DNA of 64,000 nucleotides from Octopus vulgaris (Eukaryota), in the NCBI GenBank assembly GCA_951406725.2, contig OX597840.1, positions 12,400,001-12,464,000 on the forward strand, given 5' to 3'. Numbering within the stretch: the first letter of the stretch is position 1; the number at the start of each line of letters is the position of its first letter. The position numbers and the translations under genes were made by a program. Below the pieces are notes generated by a model, which saw only the letters and a list, made by a program, of their open reading frames with translations, ran no database searches and was not told the origin of the DNA. This document shows, piece after piece, positions 6,328-56,625 of this stretch.

Positions 6328-7959
6328 CACTGGCGAAAATAAATTTAAGACCGATGATAAAAGTTATATTTCTTCAAAAATATTTTGTTACTGACACCAT
6401 ACAAATTATTTTATCTTTTACACCTTATGCAGAATTTATTTCTTTTTCAAATGATGCAGACAATAACTATTTTTTATACAACTTGAAGAATTCTAATGCT
6501 AAATTAATATAAACGTTTCAAATTTACCGGCAAAATTAGTTTAAGACCGTATCATTATAATTTTATTTAAAGCTTAAGATTGTAGCAAAAATGAGCAAAT
6601 TTTACATATTAGTACTTTTTTATATATTAGTACTTTTTGCATATTAGTACTTTGTGCTGTAACCTTTATTCTTAATAATAGCTGAACAACGCCTTGGCAT
6701 TGAATTCGCTAAGTGTTTACAAAATTCTATGGGAATGTTTTGCCATATTTCATCGAATAATTTTTTTAGATTAGATGGTTTTTTCAGCATGGACTTTTTT
6801 GGAAACATAATTCCACAAGTTCTCAATCGGATTCAGGTTCAAGCTCTGGGGAGGCCATTCAATTATGTCAGTATTATGGTGATCAAAAAATTCCATAACC
6901 TTTTTGGCTTTGTGCACAGGACTATTGTCCTGCTGATAAATAGCCCTGGAGGCATTTGGTGAGTCAAATATGGCACAACATTATCCTTTAGTAGATTCAT
7001 ATAACCTACACTATTTAGCTTTCCATCAACTTTAACTAGAGGGCCGCCCACACCATCACTCCCCCATACCCGCTTGCGCCATCTTTTTAATGCATTTTGG
7101 ATGGAATTCCTTGGTTGGGCGATGTCTGACGTATGTTTTACCATCTGATCCAAATATACAGAAGTGTGACTCATCACTCCAAAGGACCCTACACCAATCT
7201 CAGCAGTCCATTGAGCATGGCTTTTTGCAAAATTAAGGCGTTTGAGTCGATTTCTTTTGGATATTATTGGCTTTTCCCTAGCAATTCGTCCATGTAGTCC
7301 AAATTCTCTCAAATGGTTGTGGACAGTTTGTGGTGTAAAAATAACAACATTCTCGTTGGACAATTGTTTACAAATGTCAATGGTTGTCAGCATTTGGTTG
7401 CCTTCCGAAAGTTGGTGGATTTGATGGTTCAACTCTGCCGTCGTTTTCCTTGGAGTGGCAGTCCTTTGCTGATTTTTATATTGACCAGTCTCCGAGTATA
7501 ACTTCCACACTTGCACGCAAGCCGTTTTACTGTACTTTAGTTGCTTGCTGATGTTCGAAAAGGAAACTTTTTGCTGGTGGAGTAATATGATTTTTGCTCT
7601 CGTGACTGGACTGAGGCTATGTTGTTTTCCCATCATTAATCAATTGTATAATAATGTTAAATTATAACACTATATAGTGCTGTTAGGCTAGTTGTGTGAC
7701 CACACATTTTGGTAAAAAAATTTGCATACATATAAAATGGTCTCAAACTAATTTTGCTGGTAAATTTGAAACATATATATTAATTTAGCATCAGAATGCT
7801 TCAAGTTGTATAAAAATAGTTATTGTCTGCATCATTTGAAAGAGAAATAAATTCTGCATAAGTTGTAAAAGATAAAAATAATTTGTATGGTGTTAGTAAC
7901 AAAATATTTTGTAAAAAACAGAACTTTTATCATCGGTCTTAAATTTATTTTCGCCAGTG
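6328..7959 (-). mobile_element. Full-length Tc1-family transposon, IR/DR type, about 221-bp TIRs, TA target duplication
   Basis: TIRs at 6328-6548 and 7739-7959 (CACTGGCGAAAAT...), TA on both sides, and an inner direct repeat (TTTAAGACCG) at both ends of the TIR. Confidence 0.93.
6644..7636 (-). pseudogene. Frameshifted Tc1 transposase
   Basis: N-terminal HTH, KPIISKRNRLKRLNFAK..W, and C-terminal LANSMPRRCSAIIKNKGYSTKY in different frames. Confidence 0.9.
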
Positions 7960-19614: not shown

Positions 19615-20455
19615 TACATACATGTGTATATATACACATAAATAAATATACACAATATGTATATACATGCATATGCATTCACACACATAAATACACATAT
19701 ACTTACATGTTTGTTTGTAAAGAAAGTAGTTTCAATGATAGATAAAATATTTATAGGACTTCAATAGAGTGAAAAGAAATTCTACTATATTTGGTTTGAT
19801 CAGAATGAATGATATTTTATAGATTCTCAATGCATTTCATTTGTTATTACCATTCTCTCTCATATTCTATAGCTTTTCCGGTTTGGATATAACATTCAAA
19901 ATATAAATCTTAGGAAAATCATTAGAAAATATATCCATCACTTATGCACACATGCATCCATTTACACACACAAACCAACAAACACTCTCACAAACTAAAA
20001 TCTGTTTATTTATTTTAAAATGATGAGAAGATTTTCCAACCATTCTTTATTTTGGAAAAATATTTATATATTCTAAATATTGCTTTTAATTCAGCTGGAG
20101 ATCTTTGTGAATTGAGGGTTTTAAAGAAAACATTTTAAACAACAATGAAATGAATTTTCTTTAAGAATTATCAACAACATTCTGTACAGTCATGAAATAT
20201 TTAGATTCACACATCATACATATTTATTTTGTTTAGTCATTCACATATACATTTGTATATCCTCATTGATATATATTTGCATATATATATATATATATAA
20301 CATAAGGGACTAAAGCCATCTGAATATGGCTAGGGACAGGGCAGGGTGGTGGGGGTGTTACTGTTGCATTTAGCCCCAGGCGAACATCGACGTCACCAGA
20401 AAGGCTCGACACCGTCACGGTGCCCTAAACCTGCAAAGGGAGGTAATTCCCCGAT

Positions 20456-20529
20456 GAAGCGGAAACCACACACGGACCATGGTTTCAAGGTGTATTGCCT
20501 ATCATCGGCGTGTGGTAGGCCTCCGCTTC
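20456..20529 (-). ncRNA. Type I hammerhead ribozyme (left-arm copy 1)
   Basis: Identical copy, 359-bp period. Confidence 0.85.
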
Positions 20530-20814
20530 CTCGACGAATTCTCACCATGCAGGATTTCTTATATAGATTTTCAAGCAAAATACATTTGCTGATTTCGAAA
20601 ATCTGTTCGAAAGCAATAATAATTCTCTAAAAGGGATATAGACAGTAACTGCTCGATAACATAAGGGACTAAAGCCATCTGAATATGGCTAGGGACAGGG
20701 CAGGGTGGTGGGGGTGTTACTGTTGCATTTAGCCCCAGGCGAACATCGACGTCACCAGAAAGGCTCGACACCGTCACGGTGCCCTAAACCTGCAAAGGGA
20801 GGTAATTCCCCGAT

Positions 20815-20888
20815 GAAGCGGAAACCACACACGGACCATGGTTTCAAGGTGTATTGCCTATCATCGGCGTGTGGTAGGCCTCCGCTTC
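20815..20888 (-). ncRNA. Type I hammerhead ribozyme (left-arm copy 2)
   Basis: Identical copy, 359-bp period. Confidence 0.85.
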
Positions 20889-21173
20889 CTCGACGAATTC
20901 TCACCATGCAGGATTTCTTATATAGATTTTCAAGCAAAATACATTTGCTGATTTCGAAAATCTGTTCGAAAGCAATAATAATTCTCTAAAAGGGATATAG
21001 ACAGTAACTGCTCGATAACATAAGGGACCAAAGCCATCTGAATATGGCTAGGGACAGGGCAGGGTGGTGGGGGTGTTACTGTTGCATTTAGCCCCAGGCG
21101 AACATCGACGTCACCAGAAAGGCTCGACACCGTCACGGTGCCCTAAACCTGCAAAGGGAGGTAATTCCCCGAT

Positions 21174-21247
21174 GAAGCGGAAACCACACACGGACCATGG
21201 TTTCAAGGTGTATTGCCTATCATCGGCGTGTGGTAGGCCTCCGCTTC
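21174..21247 (-). ncRNA. Type I hammerhead ribozyme (left-arm copy 3)
   Basis: Reverse complement of 21452-21525. Confidence 0.85.
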
Positions 21248-21451
21248 CTCGACGAATTCTCACCATGCAGGATTTCTTATATAGATTTTCAAGCAAAATA
21301 CATTTGCTGATTTCGAAAATCTGTTCGAAAGCAATAATAATTCTCTAAAAGGGATATAGACAGTAACTGCTCGAACAGATTTTCGAAATCAGCAAATGTA
21401 TTTTGCTTGAAAATCTATATAAGAAATCCTGCATGGTGAGAATTCGTCGAG

Positions 21452-21525
21452 GAAGCGGAGGCCTACCACACGCCGATGATAGGCAATACACCTTGAAACC
21501 ATGGTCCGTGTGTGGTTTCCGCTTC
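21452..21525 (+). ncRNA. Type I hammerhead ribozyme (variant core CCGAUGA), predicted cleavage after GUC at 21506
   Basis: CACACG-CCGATGA-T-AGG-caataca-CCT-T-GAAA-CCATGG-TC-CGTGTG. Stem I continues past a bulge as GAAGCGGAGGCC/GGTTTCCGCTTC. Stem III is palindromic. Confidence 0.85.
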
Positions 21526-21810
21526 ATCGGGGAATTACCTCCCTTTGCAGGTTTAGGGCACCGTGACGGTGTCGAGCCTTTCTGGTGACGTCGATGTTCG
21601 CCTGGGGCTAAATGCAACAGTAACACCCCCACCACCCTGCCCTGTCCCTAGCCATATTCAGATGGCTTTAGTCCCTTATGTTATCGAGCAGTTACTGTCT
21701 ATATCCCTTTTAGAGAATTATTATTGCTTTCGAACAGATTTTCGAAATCAGCAAATGTATTTTGCTTGAAAATCTATATAAGAAATCCTGCATGGTGAGA
21801 ATTCGTCGAG

Positions 21811-21884
21811 GAAGCGGAGGCCTACCACACGCCGATGATAGGCAATACACCTTGAAACCATGGTCCGTGTGTGGTTTCCGCTTC
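21811..21884 (+). ncRNA. Type I hammerhead ribozyme, cleavage after 21865
   Basis: Identical copy 359 bp downstream of 21452-21525. Confidence 0.85.
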
Positions 21885-22085
21885 ATCGGGGAATTACCTC
21901 CCTTTGCAGGTTTAGGGCACCGTGACGGTGTCGAGCCTTTCTGGTGACGTCGATGTTCGCCTGGGGCTAAATGCAACAGTAACACCCCCACCACCCTGCC
22001 CTGTCCCTAGCCATATTCAGATGGCTTTAGTCCCTTATGTTATCGAGCAGTTACTGTCTATATCCCTTTTAGAGAATTATTATTG

Positions 22086-22161
<76 letters not shown>

Positions 22162-22192
22162 GTATATATATATGTATATATATATGTATATA

Positions 22193-22245
<53 letters not shown>

Positions 22246-22650
22246 ACACACACATATTTATATATATATATTATCCAAAGTGTACAATGCTATATATCAA
22301 TCATGGCTGATCTTATCAATTGGTTTCGTGCTAGGGGTACAACAGAATGTAAGGTAAGAATCCGATTATATAACCCTATGCTCATCAGAAGTGGCCAATA
22401 TGGAATGAAATATGGTAACTGCATCTTTTTCCTAAACTGATAGATATATATATATATATATATATTTCGAGCCTACGCTCTTCTATAGAAAGGGACACAG
22501 AAAAAACAAGGAGAGAAAAAAATGTGTGTAGTGGCTAACGATCTATCGTGGCGACTAGTGCCGGACAGAAGAGTCAGACACGAGGAGGAAAGTAGGGGAG
22601 ATGGAAACTGAAAGAAGCCCATCGTATATATATATATATATATATATAGG

Positions 22651-23132: not shown

Positions 23133-23700
23133 TACTTCAACTTCAATTCCCACCATCCATACAGTATAAAGAGAGGGACTGCTCAGTGCTTAAAACACTG
23201 GGCAAAGAAGATAAGTAGTGATCCTGATACATACCATGAAGAAATGATCAAGCTAAGTAACAATCTATTAAGCAAAAACTACCCCAAAAACATACTTTCC
23301 ACCCCAATTTGGAAGAGGAGAGAGGATGAAACTCATAAACTGACCCCAGTCTGTGTACCCTATGTGAAAGTTACAAAAGATATGTGGTCCATATGACATC
23401 AGGACAGTATTCAAGAGTAATACAACACTTCAGAAATATCTCCTTCGAGTAAAACCACCAATAGAAGAGAATATGACCAAAGACTGCATGTACTCCATCC
23501 CATGCAGTTGTGGTAGGTTATACAAAGGCGAAACATGCCACCCCTTCAAAATAAGGGTAGAGGAACATTGTAAAGCTGTGATACGAGGGGATATTGAAAA
23601 ATCAGATATAGCCAATCATGTATGGAAAAATGGACCCCACCCTTGTGGGATGAAGTTAAAATAATAGACAGAGAAAATACAAAAACTAAAAGAGGCAGCT
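23133..23700 (+). pseudogene. Penelope-like retroelement fragment: RT C-terminal/linker region plus GIY-YIG endonuclease, frameshifted
   Basis: YFNFNSHHPYSIKRG..NYP..PYV, then MYSIPCSCGRLYKGET..RVEEH..IANH (GIY-YIG with the CCHH residues typical of PLEs). Confidence 0.85.
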
Positions 23701-26974: not shown

Positions 26975-27920
26975 ATTTTTTTTTGCTGCTATTTTTAGCA
27001 GTCTGAATGACCACATAGCTGTTCCTGAGTCAGGCAGTGCATTGCATTCTTGAGCAAAACACTTCATTTCATGTTGCTCCAGTTCACTCAGCTGGCAAAA
27101 ATGAGTAAACCCTGTAAGGGACCAGTGTTCCATTCAGGGAAGAATGTTGCAATCTTGATCACTCAATCACCATGGAAACTGAGTAACCGGTCCTACACTT
27201 CCACGAACTCAGATAAATTTTGCTGCTATTTCTAGCAGTCTGAATGACCACATAAATGTTCCTAGAGTGGGCAGTACAATGTGTTCTTGAGCAAAACACT
27301 TCATTTCATGTTGCTCCAGTCCACTCAGCTGGCAAAAATGAGTAACCCTGCAAGGGACCAGTGTTCCATTCAGGGAGGAATATTGCAATCTCAATCCCTC
27401 AATCACCATGGAAATAGAGTAACCGGTCCTACACTTCCACGAACTCAGATAATTTTTGCTGCTATTTCTAGCAGTCTGAATGACCACATAGATGTTCCTA
27501 GAGTGGGCAGTACAATGTGTTCTTGAGCAAAACACTTCATTTTATGTTGCTCCAGTCCACTCAGCTGGCAAAAATGAGTAAACCCTGCAAGGGACCACTC
27601 TTCCATTCATGGAGGAATATTGCAATCTTGATCACTCAATCACCATGGAAACTGAGTAACCGGTCCTACACTTTCACGAACTCAGATAAATTTTGCTGCT
27701 ATTTCTAGCAGTCCGAATGACCACATAGAGGTTCCCAAACCGGGCAGTGCATTGCAGTCTTGAGCAAAACACTTCATTCCACGTTACTCCAGTTCATTCA
27801 GCTCTACATATGTTATCCTGCAATTGACTGGTATCCCATTCAGAGAAAAATCCTGTGATCTTAGTCACTCAATCACCATGGAAACTAAGCAGCTGGTCTT
27901 ATGAACCTTCCGATTCAGAA
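26975..27920. repeat. About four tandem 236-237-bp SINE-derived units
   Basis: GTCYGAATGACC at 27001, 27238, 27474 and 27711. Confidence 0.88.
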
Positions 27921-33060: not shown

Positions 33061-33276
33061 CTTTTTCAAAATGTGACCTCGTGTGTACCCATGGCGATTT
33101 TTTTCCTTTGTCTTCCCTTCTCTGGATCTTTCCTTCTCCTATGTTTCCGACGAAGAGCTCCACTTGAAACATTAAACCCTCCTGCTTTCCTTCTTTCCTG
33201 AGCATCCAATAATACTATATTTGTTCCACGTCCTTGCATTGTTGTGTTTTTTTGTGCTTTCTTGTTTGGATTAACT
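33061..33276 (+). mobile_element. Second copy of the short HHR-bearing element; HHR at 33143-33177 (decayed)
   Basis: GTTT-CCGACGA-AGAGC tcc ACTT-GAAA-CA-TT-AAAC. Alignable end to end with 39999-40247. Confidence 0.6.
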
Positions 33277-34172: not shown

Positions 34173-35364
<1,192 letters not shown>

Positions 35365-41366: not shown

Positions 41367-44300
41367 TTGTGTGTCTGTTTGTCCCCACAACATCACTTGA
41401 CAACCGATGCTGGTGTGTTTACGTCCCCGTAACTTAGCAGTTCGGCAAAAGAGACCGATAGAATAAGTACTAGGCTTACAAAGAATAAGTCCTGGGGTCG
41501 ATTTGCTCGACTAAAGGTGGTGCTCCGGCATGGCCACAGTCAAATGACTGAAACAAGTAAAAGAGTAAACTTAGCGGTTCTCAAAAGGGACCGATAGAAT
41601 AAGTACTAGGCTTACAAAGAATAAGTCCTGGGGTCGATTTGCTCGAATAAAGGCGGTGCTCCAGCATGGCCACAGTCAAATGACTGAAACAATTAAAAGA
41701 AGATTTTGTTACTGTACACAGAGTTTTCTCTTACTTTTTCTTCCATGTTTCTGTTGTACATTTGCCATGAGTGGAGTTTGGTGTTTCACCGAGTTTGTGA
41801 ATGAAAAATGTATTTCTTTGGCCGCATGTAGAAGTAACTAATGACACTCATGAACAATTAATAGAAGATTTTGTTACTGTACACAGAGTTTTCTGTGTTG
41901 GCCTTTTAATGAATACTAACAGCGACAATTACACACTGGCAGAGACATACAGCTAGGATCTACAACAAACTATAAGCAATCTGTGGCTGGCCCATCACAA
42001 ATGAAAAATAATTGTACTATATTCATGGCAACAAAAGTTCCTGTCTCAAGCAGATGGATGTGGAGATGGGAATGGCAACACCATGCAGCTGCCTCAACAT
42101 TATGCAATTATTGCCAAAGTCTACCTTTATTTAGAGCAACTGGAGAAGGTTCAGAAAACCAAATCATGCGATGGCTTGCCACTGATTGATTGCTTAGTAG
42201 ACTGATCATGTGAAACAACTGTGGTTTGATTGTGATGTCTACTTGGCTACTGGGTGATTCGGTTTTGAATTACTGCTACACCTTTATCCAAGGCTACACA
42301 CAAATTGAACTCAAAGCCATTTGATTACAGGCGTAGGAGTGGCTGTGTGGTAAGTAGCCTGCTTACCAACAACATGGTTCCGGGTTCAGTCCTACTGCGT
42401 TGCACCTTGGGCAAGTGTCTTCTACTATAGCCTCGGGCCGACCAAAGCCTTGTGAATGGATTTGGTAGATGGAAACTGAAAGAAGCCCGTTGTATATATG
42501 CATATATATATGTATGTGTATGTCTATATTTGTGTGTCTGTGTTTGTCCCCCCAACATCACTTGACAACTGATGCTGGTGTGTTTATGTCCCCGTAACTT
42601 AGCAGTTCGGCGAAAGAGACTGATAGAATAAGTACTGGGCTTACAAAGAATAAGTACTGTGGTCGATTTCCTCGACTAAAGGCGGTGCTCCAGCATAAAG
42701 CCATATTTTGCTCGAATCTATAAGATATTCATGCCATCCTTTCATTTACCTCTGCATTGGTGTGGAAAATAGCCATAAAACAGTGATGTATCATCATATC
42801 GATTAATTTCTTAATAAGATTTTAATGAATCAAGACAGAGCAGCTGTCTTTTTTTTAGGTTAAATGTATGATTCTCCTTATACCATGTGAAATAGCAAAC
42901 TGAAATTTCTCTCAAATCAGACCCTACCATCTTAGGACAGTAGAAGACATTACGTATATAGGTGTATATATATGTGTGTGTGTGTATTTATGTTCATGTG
43001 TGTATGCATGTTTATGTGTGTATATATATATATGTGTGTGTATACATATGTGTATATATATATATGTATATATATATATGTATATATATATATGTATGTA
43101 TATATATATGTATATATATATATGTATATATGTATATGTATATGTATGTATGTATATATATGTATATGTATGTTTATATATGTATATATATAAAAATATG
43201 TGTATTTATATATATGTATATATATGTATATATGTATATATACATTTATTTATCTGTGTGTGTGTATATATATATATATACACACATACATACATACATA
43301 CATACATACATACATACATACATACATACATACATACATACAGATAAATGTGTATATGGATGCATATATATGTGTGTGTGTAGATATATTTGTGTGTACA
43401 CACAACACATACACACACACACACACGCACACATGATTCTCAAAGAGTCAAAGTAGTATGACTGCTGTGATGCCTACTGAAGCAGAAACACATGTCCTCT
43501 TGCCTACAGGAAAGACAAGCAATGCAACCAAATGAATAAATAAAGCAGACTGTCTTTTCCTTAATGCTATGATAATTCTGGAGAGTTCTTGTGTCTTGAG
43601 ATTATCTCTTGTTCTCATCCAGTGGAGGTTGTAATGGCCTTGGGGCTTCTCATCTACCTTCTCTTCAAGTGAAGAAAATTTCTCAAAATCAAGAATTTAT
43701 CTTGTACAGTATTTAATATATCAGATCCAAATTCCTGCCTTTGGTCTCTATGAGTTTCTTCCCTTCACTCAGTTTTGTTTAAAAATATCTATGTGGTAAG
43801 AAGCTTGTTTCCCAACCACATGGTTCCGGGTTCAGTCCCACTGTGTGGTACTTTGAGTAAGTGTCTTCTGCTATAGCCTCAGACTGACCAAAGCCTAGTG
43901 AGTGGGTTTGGTGGATGGAAACTGAAAGAATCCCTTCAAATATATATATACTCTTTACTCTTTTACTCTTTTACTTGTTTCAGTCATTTGACAGCAGCCA
44001 TGCTGGAGCACCGCCTTTTTAGTCGAGTAAATCGACCCCAGGACTTATTCTTTGTAAGCCCAGTACTTATTCTATCAGTCTCTTTTGCTGAACCGCTAAG
44101 TTACGGGGACGTAAACACACCACCATCGGTTGTCAAGCAATGGTTGGGGGATAAACACAGACACACAAACATATACACACATACACATACATACATATAT
44201 ACGACGGGCTTCTTCCAGTTTCTGTCTACCAGATCCACTCACAAGGCTTTGGTCGGCCCGAGGCTATAGTAGAAGACACTTGCCCAAAGTACCACGCAGT

Positions 44301-47664: not shown

Positions 47665-48081
47665 TTATTTCTTTACTGCCCACAAGGGGCTACACACAGA
47701 GGGGACAAACAAGGACAGACAAACGGATTAAGTCAATTATATCGACCCCAGTGCGTAACTGGTACTCATTTAATCAACCCCGAAAGGATGAAAGGCAAAG
47801 TCAACCTTGGCAGAGTTTGAACTCAGAACGTAGCAGCAGATGAAATACCTATTTCTTTATTACCCACAAGGGGCTAAACACAGAGGGAACAAACAAGGAC
47901 AGACATAGGTATTAAGTCGATTACATCAACCCCAGTGTGTAACTGATACTTAATTTATCGACCCCGAAAGGATGAAAGGCAAAGTCGACGTCGGAGGAAT
48001 TTGAACTCACAATGTAACGCAGACGAAATACCGCTAAGCATTTCACCCAGCGTGCTAACGTTTCTGCCAGCTCGCAGCCTT
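47665..48081 (-). repeat. SINE family B with two tandem bodies
   Basis: Same junction at about 47849. Confidence 0.85.
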
Positions 48082-53311: not shown

Positions 53312-54066
53312 TATTTCTTTACTGTCCACAAGGGGCTACACACAGAAGGGACGAAAAAGGATGCACAAACAGATTAAGTTGATTAGATTGACCCCAGTGT
53401 GTAACTGGTACTTATTTAATCGACCCTGAAAGGATGAAAGGCAAAGTCGACCTTGGCGGAATTTGAACTCAGAACATAGCGGCAGACGAAATACCTATTT
53501 CTTTACTACCCACAAGGGGCTAAACACAGAGAGTACAAACAAGGACAGACAAACGGATTAAGTCAATTATATTGACCCCAGTGCATAACTGGTACTTATT
53601 TAATTGACCCCGAAAGGATGAAAGGCAAAGTCGACCTCAGCAGAATTTGAACTCAGAACGTAACGACAGACGAAATACCTATTTCTTTACTGCCCACAAG
53701 GGGCTAAACACAGAGCGGACAAACGGATTAAGTCGATTATATTGACCCCAGTGCGTAACTGGTACTTATTTAATCGACCCTGAAAGGATGAAAGGCAAAG
53801 TCGAACCTCGGCGGAATTTGAACTCAGAACATAGCGGCAGACGAAATACCTATTTCTTTACTATCCACAAGGGGCTAAACACAGAGAGTACAAACACAGA
53901 GTGGACAAATGGATTAAGTCAATTATATTGACCCCAGTGCGTAACTGGTGCTTATTTAATTGACCCCGAAAGGATGAAAGGCAAAGTCGACCTCGGCGGA
54001 ATTTGAACCCAGAACGTAAAGACAAACGAAATACGGCTAAGCATTTCGCCCGGTGTGCTAACCGAA
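53312..54066 (-). repeat. SINE family B with four tandem bodies
   Basis: Junction GACGAAATACCTATTTCTTTA at about 53495, 53679 and 53850. Confidence 0.88.
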
Positions 54067-55813: not shown

Positions 55814-56625
55814 CAGTTCTATATTTAAGAGACAAGAAACTATGTACATTATTTACATTATTTATATTTGTCCTCATCTTGTTTGTTGTTAACACAACGT
55901 TTCGGCTGATATACCCTTCATCAGTTGCTTTGGGGATATTTTGAACTTGGGTTCTCATTCCTAAGGTATTTTTTTTTTATGTTGTTATTATTATTAAGGT
56001 CACTGCCTGGAATCGAACTCAGAATCTTGGGGTTAGTAGCCCATGCTCTTACCACTACGCCATATGCCCACAGGCATTTTGCGTAGTGGGTAAGAGCACA
56101 GGCTACTAACCCCAAGGGCATATGGTGTAGTGGTTAAGAGCTACTAACCCCAAGGGCATATGGTGTAGTGGTTAAAAGCTAGTAACCCCAAGGGCATATA
56201 GCGTAGTAGTTAAGAGCTACTAACCCCAAGGGCATATGGTGTAGTGGTTTAGAGCTACTAACCCCAAGGGCATATAGCGTAGTAGTTAAGAGCTACTAAC
56301 CCCAAGGGCATATGGAATAGTGGTTAAGAGCTAGTAACCCCAAGGGCATATGGTGTAGTGGTTAAGAGTAAGTAACCCCAAGGGAATATGGCGTAGTGGT
56401 TAAGAGCACAGGCTTCTAACCCCAAGATTCCAAGTTCGATTCTAGGCAGTGACCTTAATAATAATAATAACAACATAAAAAAAAAATACCTTAGGAATGA
56501 GAACCCAGGTTCAAAATTTCCGCAAGACACCTGATGAAGGCTGGAGGGTATATCAGCCAAAATGTGTTAACAACAAACAAGATGAGGACAAATATCCATC
56601 AAATATAAATAATGTAAATAATGTA
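55814..56625. mobile_element. Palindromic element: two divergent tRNA-like heads, each followed by (AAT)n and a minimal HHR
   Basis: About 55840-56070 is the reverse complement of 56382-56625. A box TGGCGTAGTGG, B box GTTCGATTC, GACAC-CTGATGA-A-GGCTG..CAGCC at 56526-56558, and CCGAAACGTTGTGTT on the minus arm. Confidence 0.7.
56116..56381 (+). repeat. Seven tandem 38-bp units derived from the 5' half of the tRNA-like head
   Basis: GGGCATATGGTGTAGTGGTTAAGAGCTACTAACCCCAA repeated with period 38. Confidence 0.9.

Follow-up and report, generated by a model that had tools for sequence, protein, structure and literature searches.

Non-LTR retrozymes of animals, described for example from coral, mussel and axolotl, are dispersed families of tandem units of 150-450 bp with a GC content below 50% (PMC7229834; 10.64898/2026.07.22.740005). 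Each unit carries one type I hammerhead and lacks LTRs and ORFs, and the insertions show long target duplications (>4 bp) in genomes that also contain Penelope-like elements (PLEs; PMC7229834). Circular RNAs have been demonstrated in these animals, and the text of PMC7229834 proposes that such circles are copied into tandem cDNA, with PLEs as strong candidates. For the retrozymes of Xenopus, pLTR homology was shown and local amplification was favoured (10.64898/2026.07.22.740005). The earlier proposal that PLEs transport animal retrozymes via circular RNA was thus based on co-occurrence and pLTR similarity.

Endonuclease-bearing PLEs insert into (TA)n targets in a characteristic shape, with an inverted, 5'-truncated copy in head-to-head orientation and a tail of 30-40 bp at one end (PMC3846280; PMC8557442). 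Their target duplications measure 8-10 bp (PMC3846280; PMC8557442; PMC11167929). For the purified Anolis PLE, whose protein is predicted to be a dimer, both DNA strands were cut and extended, and two internal start sites of reverse transcription bound the tail (PMC11167929). Non-autonomous PLEs of the Chlamys type, e.g., MRC1, are non-coding, mobilised by PLEs and often multicopy in head-to-tail order; according to the text of PMC8557442, their 3' sequence is generally shared with the helper and most Chlamys elements lack canonical hammerheads.

The array described here lies within a stretch of 64,000 nucleotides of the Octopus vulgaris genome (the window) and shows all testable features of animal non-LTR retrozymes. 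It is a variant-core animal non-LTR retrozyme, with genomic evidence for the proposed transposition route. Circles, demonstrated in the other animals, are predicted for the octopus family. Its hammerhead core differs, the youngest subfamily carrying U4C and most older subfamilies U3-A8 or U3·G8, and its units form head-to-head arms with two complementary fixed ends. The term "inverted" is absent from the main text of PMC7229834, as are "octop" and "cephalop" from its text and "tail" from the text of 10.64898/2026.07.22.740005. Neither retrozymes of cephalopods nor inverted arms or tails in any retrozyme were found described in the literature searched, including the available text of PMC7761336, PMC8490949, PMC9977147 and PMC11722881; the supplements of the retrozyme papers, subscription journals and Repbase lay outside this search and may hold one.

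Tandem Repeats Finder resolves the array into two stretches of period 359 (3.0 and 2.0 copies; Table 1). Over its 717 bases, the second matches the reverse complement of the unit exactly. An earlier note on this DNA had described a plain array of five 359-bp units between positions 20297 and 22087. The number of units is correct and only a single substitution separates them, but the array is inverted, with three units facing left and two facing right. This inversion with its two fixed ends, absent from the earlier note, is the most informative feature of the locus. The ends of the array adjoin the target directly, without LTRs, and by analogy with the Anolis element (PMC11167929) we infer that the 44-nt tail is bounded by two start sites of reverse transcription. 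As stated in the earlier note, (TA)n is present on either side, the array (47% GC) is richer in GC than its 1-kb flanks (30% and 35%), and there is no credible ORF, the longest ATG ORF of the unit comprising 51 aa in the sense and 58 aa in the antisense strand. The enrichment in CpG that it also noted is found on one side only, since the observed/expected ratio of the array (0.84) exceeds that of the left flank (0.37) and not that of the right (0.89).

Table 1. Position and strand of the features of the array and its target within the window.
Feature	Position	Strand
Left arm, 3.0 tandem units; outer (3') end 20297 = fixed end S1, unit position 178	20297..21374	-
Right arm, 2.0 tandem units; outer (3') end 22087 = fixed end S2, unit position 222	21371..22087	+
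Head-to-head arm junction, 4-nt microhomology TCGA, unit positions 178 and 224	21371..21374	.
44-nt tail between S1 and S2, at the right end only	22044..22087	+
(TA)n target, left part	20281..20296	.
(TA)n target, right part	22088..22271	.
Type I hammerhead, in order: stem I; CCGAUGA (U4C core); stem II opening with U·U; GAAA; stem III of 2 bp with palindromic CAUG loop; predicted cleavage after 21506 (GUC)	21466..21512	+
Second plus-strand hammerhead; predicted cut after 21865	21825..21871	+
Minus-strand hammerhead copy	21187..21233	-
Minus-strand hammerhead copy	20828..20874	-
Minus-strand hammerhead copy	20469..20515	-
Predicted 359-nt monomer between two cut sites	21507..21865	+
Further predicted 359-nt monomers	20475-20833 and 20834-21192	-

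A search of the octopus genome (2.8 Gb) with the unit revealed 586 candidates, of which 40 were scored and gave 279 matches; identity was 98-100% for the 150 of these matches listed, and the matches are spread over many chromosome-size contigs. The family is dispersed and young. This identity among the matches listed, together with the PLE insertion signature described below, bears out the earlier reading of a recently active, non-LTR retrozyme-like family tied to PLEs, and we regard the assignment to the retrozymes as very probable. A chance locus in L061 pointed to a sister family, B, whose unit measures 357 nt (1911 candidates, 40 scored). A position-ordered sample on contig C1 contained a range of subfamilies down to ~57% identity, and a 13-mer common to the subfamilies had 2156 matches compared to 113 for a control. 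A contig of 389-390 nt, consisting of the unit plus ~30 nt, was present in three runs that are only guessed to be RNA, one of them labelled as another organism (8 substitutions and 1 gap in 390), and a 359-nt contig in one run of unknown kind. A circle and a tandem repeat would yield the same contigs, which consequently count neither way.

The architecture of insertion was mapped for 40 loci selected by identity (39 and the window locus) and for 51 position-ordered loci on C1, comprising 30 close relatives of the unit (A-like), 18 B-like loci and 3 without a match. Counted from the predicted cut site, the outer end of an arm lies at one of two positions 44 nt apart, S1 (165-183, mostly 178) or S2 (214-230, mostly 222). 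Fifty-three of the 70 A-like loci are two-armed, all in head-to-head (minus-then-plus) orientation, and 48 of these 53 combine one S1 with one S2 end, while the same end never occurs twice. Divided by sample, the combination was found in 26/29 identity-selected, 22/24 position-ordered A-like and 4/8 older B-like two-armed loci. None of 61 two-armed loci, all of them head to head, has the same end twice; those without one of each have at least one end outside both ranges. Similarly, among 29 family B loci retrieved with a query ending at S2, the other arm ends at S1 in 12 of 16 two-armed cases and at S2 in none. The 17 one-armed A-like loci end at S1 (13) or S2 (4), and close strand switches are minus-then-plus in 14 of 14 cases among the first 100 listed places on C1.

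Fixed ends are confined to the 3' side of the hammerhead-sense strand. The positions of inner ends are scattered around the unit (chi-square p 0.19), and only 5 of 123 lie at most 5 nt away from the cut site. The cut site is crossed by 105 of 124 arms, without a length change in any of the 271 crossings for which both anchors matched, and 92 of 117 arms are longer than one unit. Central junctions, judged from BLAST ends at 46 loci, show an overlap of 1-6 nt in 26 cases, none in 8, 8-30 nt in 6 and inserted bases in 6. In the window, both arms comprise near-whole numbers of circuits, and hence the inner ends of this array also lie near S1 and S2. Targets of the family, as seen in the flanks of the mapped loci, are AT-rich or (TA)n; duplications of 11-13 bp were identified at seven loci with unique flanks and of 15 and 7 bp at two more, while at the window locus any duplication is hidden by the (TA)n.

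This shape is the inverted-copy-plus-tail signature of PLEs, and insertion by a PLE machinery is very probable. Previously, the case for such transport did not extend to the insertion ends, which here bear the PLE signature themselves. The octopus units differ from endonuclease-bearing PLEs in lacking an ORF for reverse transcriptase (RT) and GIY-YIG endonuclease, in a longer tail (44 nt), and in arms that repeat a small unit perfectly, up to 15 times. Their inner junctions are mostly non-palindromic, unlike those behind the 2013 self-priming model (PMC3846280). In vitro, no difference in start site was seen between the two strands for the Anolis PLE (PMC11167929); the one-S1-one-S2 rule says that in finished insertions the two strands would use different start sites. 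The strictness of this rule bears on how PLEs generate inverted copies and tails, and agrees with priming of each cut strand at a different RNA site.

A hammerhead fold is present in all five units of the window, on the minus strand in the left and on the plus strand in the right arm, with CCACACG and CGUGUG pairing in stem I. One type I fold per unit, the predicted GUC cut and the 359-nt monomer are as the earlier note described them. The core is not canonical, as it reads CCGAUGA and a U·U opens stem II. A search against the Rfam hammerhead families, covering 6.5 kb at E<=1 and the 121-nt motif at E<=10, found no match. Rfam misses the variant-core hammerhead of the window, and cores of this kind show why descriptor searches could overlook such families. 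Natural hammerheads with U3-A8, with U4C or with a U·U at 10.1-11.1 have been described, and U4C lowers activity in vitro (PMC3088659). Like the window hammerhead, HHR_Amex2 of axolotl combines a stem III of 2 bp with a U·U that opens stem II, according to the published text. The U·U weakens stem II of the window hammerhead; in a 60-nt motif the active fold (-4.2 kcal/mol) lies far above the MFE (-19.4 kcal/mol), and the stem III duplex has -12.6 kcal/mol. In Xenopus, 8 of 9 retrozyme dimers did not cleave (10.64898/2026.07.22.740005).

To compare hammerheads across subfamilies, that of the window was aligned with 27 others; the distinct ones numbered 30, three of which were near-copies of the window hammerhead and were excluded. 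Standard pairs occupy 92.6% of 420 cells of this alignment, a value reached by none of 500 shuffles, which take no account of the relatedness among the 28 hammerheads, and slid registers gave 21-58%. The core pair 3-8 is intact in all 28 (UA in 16, CG in 6, UG in 6), the 10.1-11.1 pair is unpaired in 16, and loop III is palindromic in 24 with a changing sequence (UGCA, CUAG, CAUG, CGCG, UAUA, UA). The descriptor used for collection fixed parts of the core and left pairings and palindromes free, so that the invariance of the core is partly built in. Pairing and loop palindromes are retained across units that are ~57-64% identical, a pattern that matches hammerheads working as dimers (PMC4209133) and suggests that the hammerhead is under selection. 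The earlier note had taken missing conservation as the mark of an ordinary satellite; the pairing proved to be conserved. On balance, a working ribozyme in the youngest subfamily appears likely.

It is probable that the array represents a single insertion of a non-autonomous, hammerhead-bearing retroelement by a PLE protein. In this model, an existing array would be transcribed by read-through. Adjacent hammerheads would pair via their palindromic loops III and cut after GUC, and the 359-nt monomer would be circularised, as suggested by the conservation described above and by other animals. A PLE RT-endonuclease would then cut both (TA)n strands ~11-13 bp apart, in keeping with the observed targets and duplications. 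The hammerhead-sense strand would be reverse-transcribed with each 3' end as primer, beginning at S1 (~178) for one end and at S2 (~222) for the other, the positions at which the arms are seen to end. Each cDNA would run for a variable distance across the cut site and several times round the presumably circular unit, as reflected in the observed arm lengths, and the two cDNAs would be joined head to head, mostly by the short microhomology present at the junctions.

The circular template in this model is itself probable, based on the distribution of variants. Where both arms are long (31 loci), 87 variants relative to the window occupy every unit of both arms, compared to 11 that are shared by some units only. 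The window allele at unit position 288 is present in all five units of the array, yet genome-wide in only 10 units compared to 187 with the commoner allele in the same context, and elsewhere never in more than one unit per arm. Likewise, a variant at L058 is carried by 13 units across both arms of this locus and by none elsewhere in the assembly. Rare variants that fill both arms without a donor array favour rolling-circle copying of a monomer, and such sharing argues for multimers written in one event. An alternative, which we consider unlikely, retains the PLE-driven insertion and assumes an uncut, linear multi-unit read-through transcript as template, with a weak or dispensable hammerhead and no circle. 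The variant core of the window hammerhead would fit this scenario, as would the purified Anolis PLE system, in which hammerhead cleavage was dispensable for insertion (PMC11167929), and the second haplotype found at L046 in one of three units of each arm. However, a linear template requires donor arrays uniform for the rare variants, and the assembly contains none for the window locus or L058, which favours a circle copied many times; the conserved hammerhead pairing and palindromes also speak against it. Donors may be located on another haplotype, or the arms may have grown later.

Such later growth of long arms by unequal crossover, after a PLE-type insertion of short ones, would correspond to the local amplification of Li et al. 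(2026). Fixed ends and uniform units both fit, and partial variants exist at L054 and at L032, where a variant occupies 7/7 left and 8/15 right units. Yet a tandem template would still be needed at insertion for the arms exceeding one unit, and long arrays are almost free of variants common to neighbouring units (none at L036, L048 and L058), which makes this explanation quite improbable. The mixed units at L046 and L032 indicate that some templates were mixed multimers or that some arms grew later. Circular monomers would be the usual rather than the only template. Against the helper proposed below, a Neptune-type PLE, stands its tail length of 36 nt, compared to 44 nt in the unit.

The monomer folds at -120.5 kcal/mol (z -4.84), better than all of 100 shuffles. 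Five of the six pairings named in the earlier note occur in its MFE fold, while GGGCTAAA/TTTAGTCC (unit 99/161) appears neither there nor in the consensus fold of 13 subfamily units; of the long rod it had drawn, unit 1-24/300-325 is part of the consensus fold and the remainder is not. Viroid RNAs of the Avsunviroidae type are similar in size, compact fold and possession of a hammerhead. The octopus element differs in being genome-encoded, with one conserved ribozyme polarity, and nothing points to replication from RNA to RNA. The antisense strand, which contains CCGAUGA-N4-GAAA with a GUA site and folds with a z of -2.15, might be read as the second polarity of an autonomous viroid-like RNA that carries ribozymes on both strands and is integrated now and then. 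This antisense core lacks stem II and is found in only 3 of the 13 subfamily units, all at least 91% identical to the window unit, and fixed ends are restricted to the 3' side of the sense strand. We regard the antisense motif as a by-product of the rod and an autonomous RNA as very improbable. The label "viroid-like" consequently holds only for size, fold and ribozyme, and the antisense core gives no case for RNA-to-RNA replication. An ordinary satellite, a contaminant or an assembly chimera at the TCGA site, to which the 4-nt palindromic junction and the simple-repeat flanks might point, is extremely improbable in view of the dispersal on many chromosome-size contigs, the junctions differing in sequence and position at other loci, the target duplications and the old, diverged subfamilies.

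For the preferred PLE-driven insertion, several helpers were considered. A decayed, frameshifted 3' fragment of a Penelope/Poseidon-type PLE lies beside the array at 23133-23664 (+) of the window and has a homolog labelled Octopus sinensis. Its family is 75-88% identical among 149 other scored matches, with no frame above 362 codons, and the unit shares no sequence with 20 Poseidon-type loci. This old family was therefore rejected as helper. The Poseidon pLTR (L208-L226) contains, by eye, a tRNA-like stretch ahead of a minimal hammerhead and has two preferred 3' ends; the window itself contains matching hammerhead motifs and a 38-bp tandem repeat of this tRNA-like stretch, at 34242 (-), 55924 (-) and 56102-56407. 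Naiad and Hydra PLEs of Octopus (Craig 2021, supplement) were likewise rejected, as their ends by eye are unlike those of the unit and four unit motifs found a single match, in a GC-rich entry that does not look like Octopus; cephalopod Naiads are described as long inactive (PMC8557442).

A younger family of Neptune type was found beside the array of another locus (L063:1-1991; L227-L261). It was assigned to this clade by the Cys linker preceding the GIY-YIG domain (as in the text of PMC8557442), the latter being recognised by Pfam. Fifty-seven of 150 scored matches are 100% identical over 141 aa, 11 of them within an open frame of 775 codons. Copies of this family end at either of two sites separated by 36 nt (15 and 9 of the 25 copies, with 1 unclear), and their targets are (TA)n in nearly all cases. 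The three two-armed loci each have one end of either kind. 5' ends were read for 6 full-length copies, 4 of which gave no second end. The elements also occur in tandem copies and contain a further frame upstream and a run of T, possibly a frameshift site, ahead of the 775-codon frame for RT and endonuclease. No hammerhead was found near Neptune ends, and the unit, as with the 20 Poseidon-type loci, has no homology to the young Neptune pLTR. At first sight the Neptune tail resembles the unit, but similarity of the end region did not exceed that of shuffles for any of 13 units (p 0.195-0.995). In contrast to Chlamys PLEs, no sequence shared with the Poseidon- or Neptune-type candidates was found in the octopus unit. 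Neptune is the best helper candidate, by age and behaviour only, with somewhat less than an even chance of being the helper. Since this genome contains intact copies of a possible helper alongside retrozymes that are nearly identical to one another, the proposed cycle could be reconstructed in vitro.

More tentatively, and possible rather than likely as a whole, a dimeric RT-endonuclease of Neptune type might hold one small RNA circle, with one subunit always starting at S1 and the other at S2 in a twin-primed rolling-circle reverse transcription. Both would run round the circle and their products be joined head to head, and the arrays would record this process directly in the genome. It would recognise the RNA by shape, without sequence shared with the helper and with non-standard hammerhead cores, and the family would in turn serve as a fixed target of an L1/Tx1-like LINE in extended stem I. 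Standard descriptors would miss cores of this kind, and other animals may thus harbour similar, overlooked families.

The LINE in question has an ORF1 and an endonuclease-RT frame, and we take it to belong to an L1/Tx1-like clade from its motifs. It begins at unit ~318 of B-type retrozymes in six loci of different subfamilies (L130 (=L071), L131 (=L086), L149, L179, L202 and L206), and retrozyme sequence resumes at 299 in L130 and at 312 in L131. To judge by these positions, the LINE appears to target the retrozyme just 5' of the hammerhead; no report of a LINE targeting retrozymes was found in the literature searched. At L032:480-574, a short remnant of a hammerhead region (~80% identical) runs into unrelated sequence; none of 40 scored candidates was a close copy of it. 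Another family is represented in the window by two minimal hammerhead-like motifs, related to each other, at 33147 (+) and 40117 (+), one of which has the core CCGACGA. A stop-free frame of 258 codons at 6866-7639 (-) resembles the N-terminus of a Tc1/mariner transposase. Further tandem arrays with units of 237, 136 and 184 bp, apparently common interspersed repeats, occupy 26981-27803, 41431-41700, 47666-48032 and 53312-54034 of the window.
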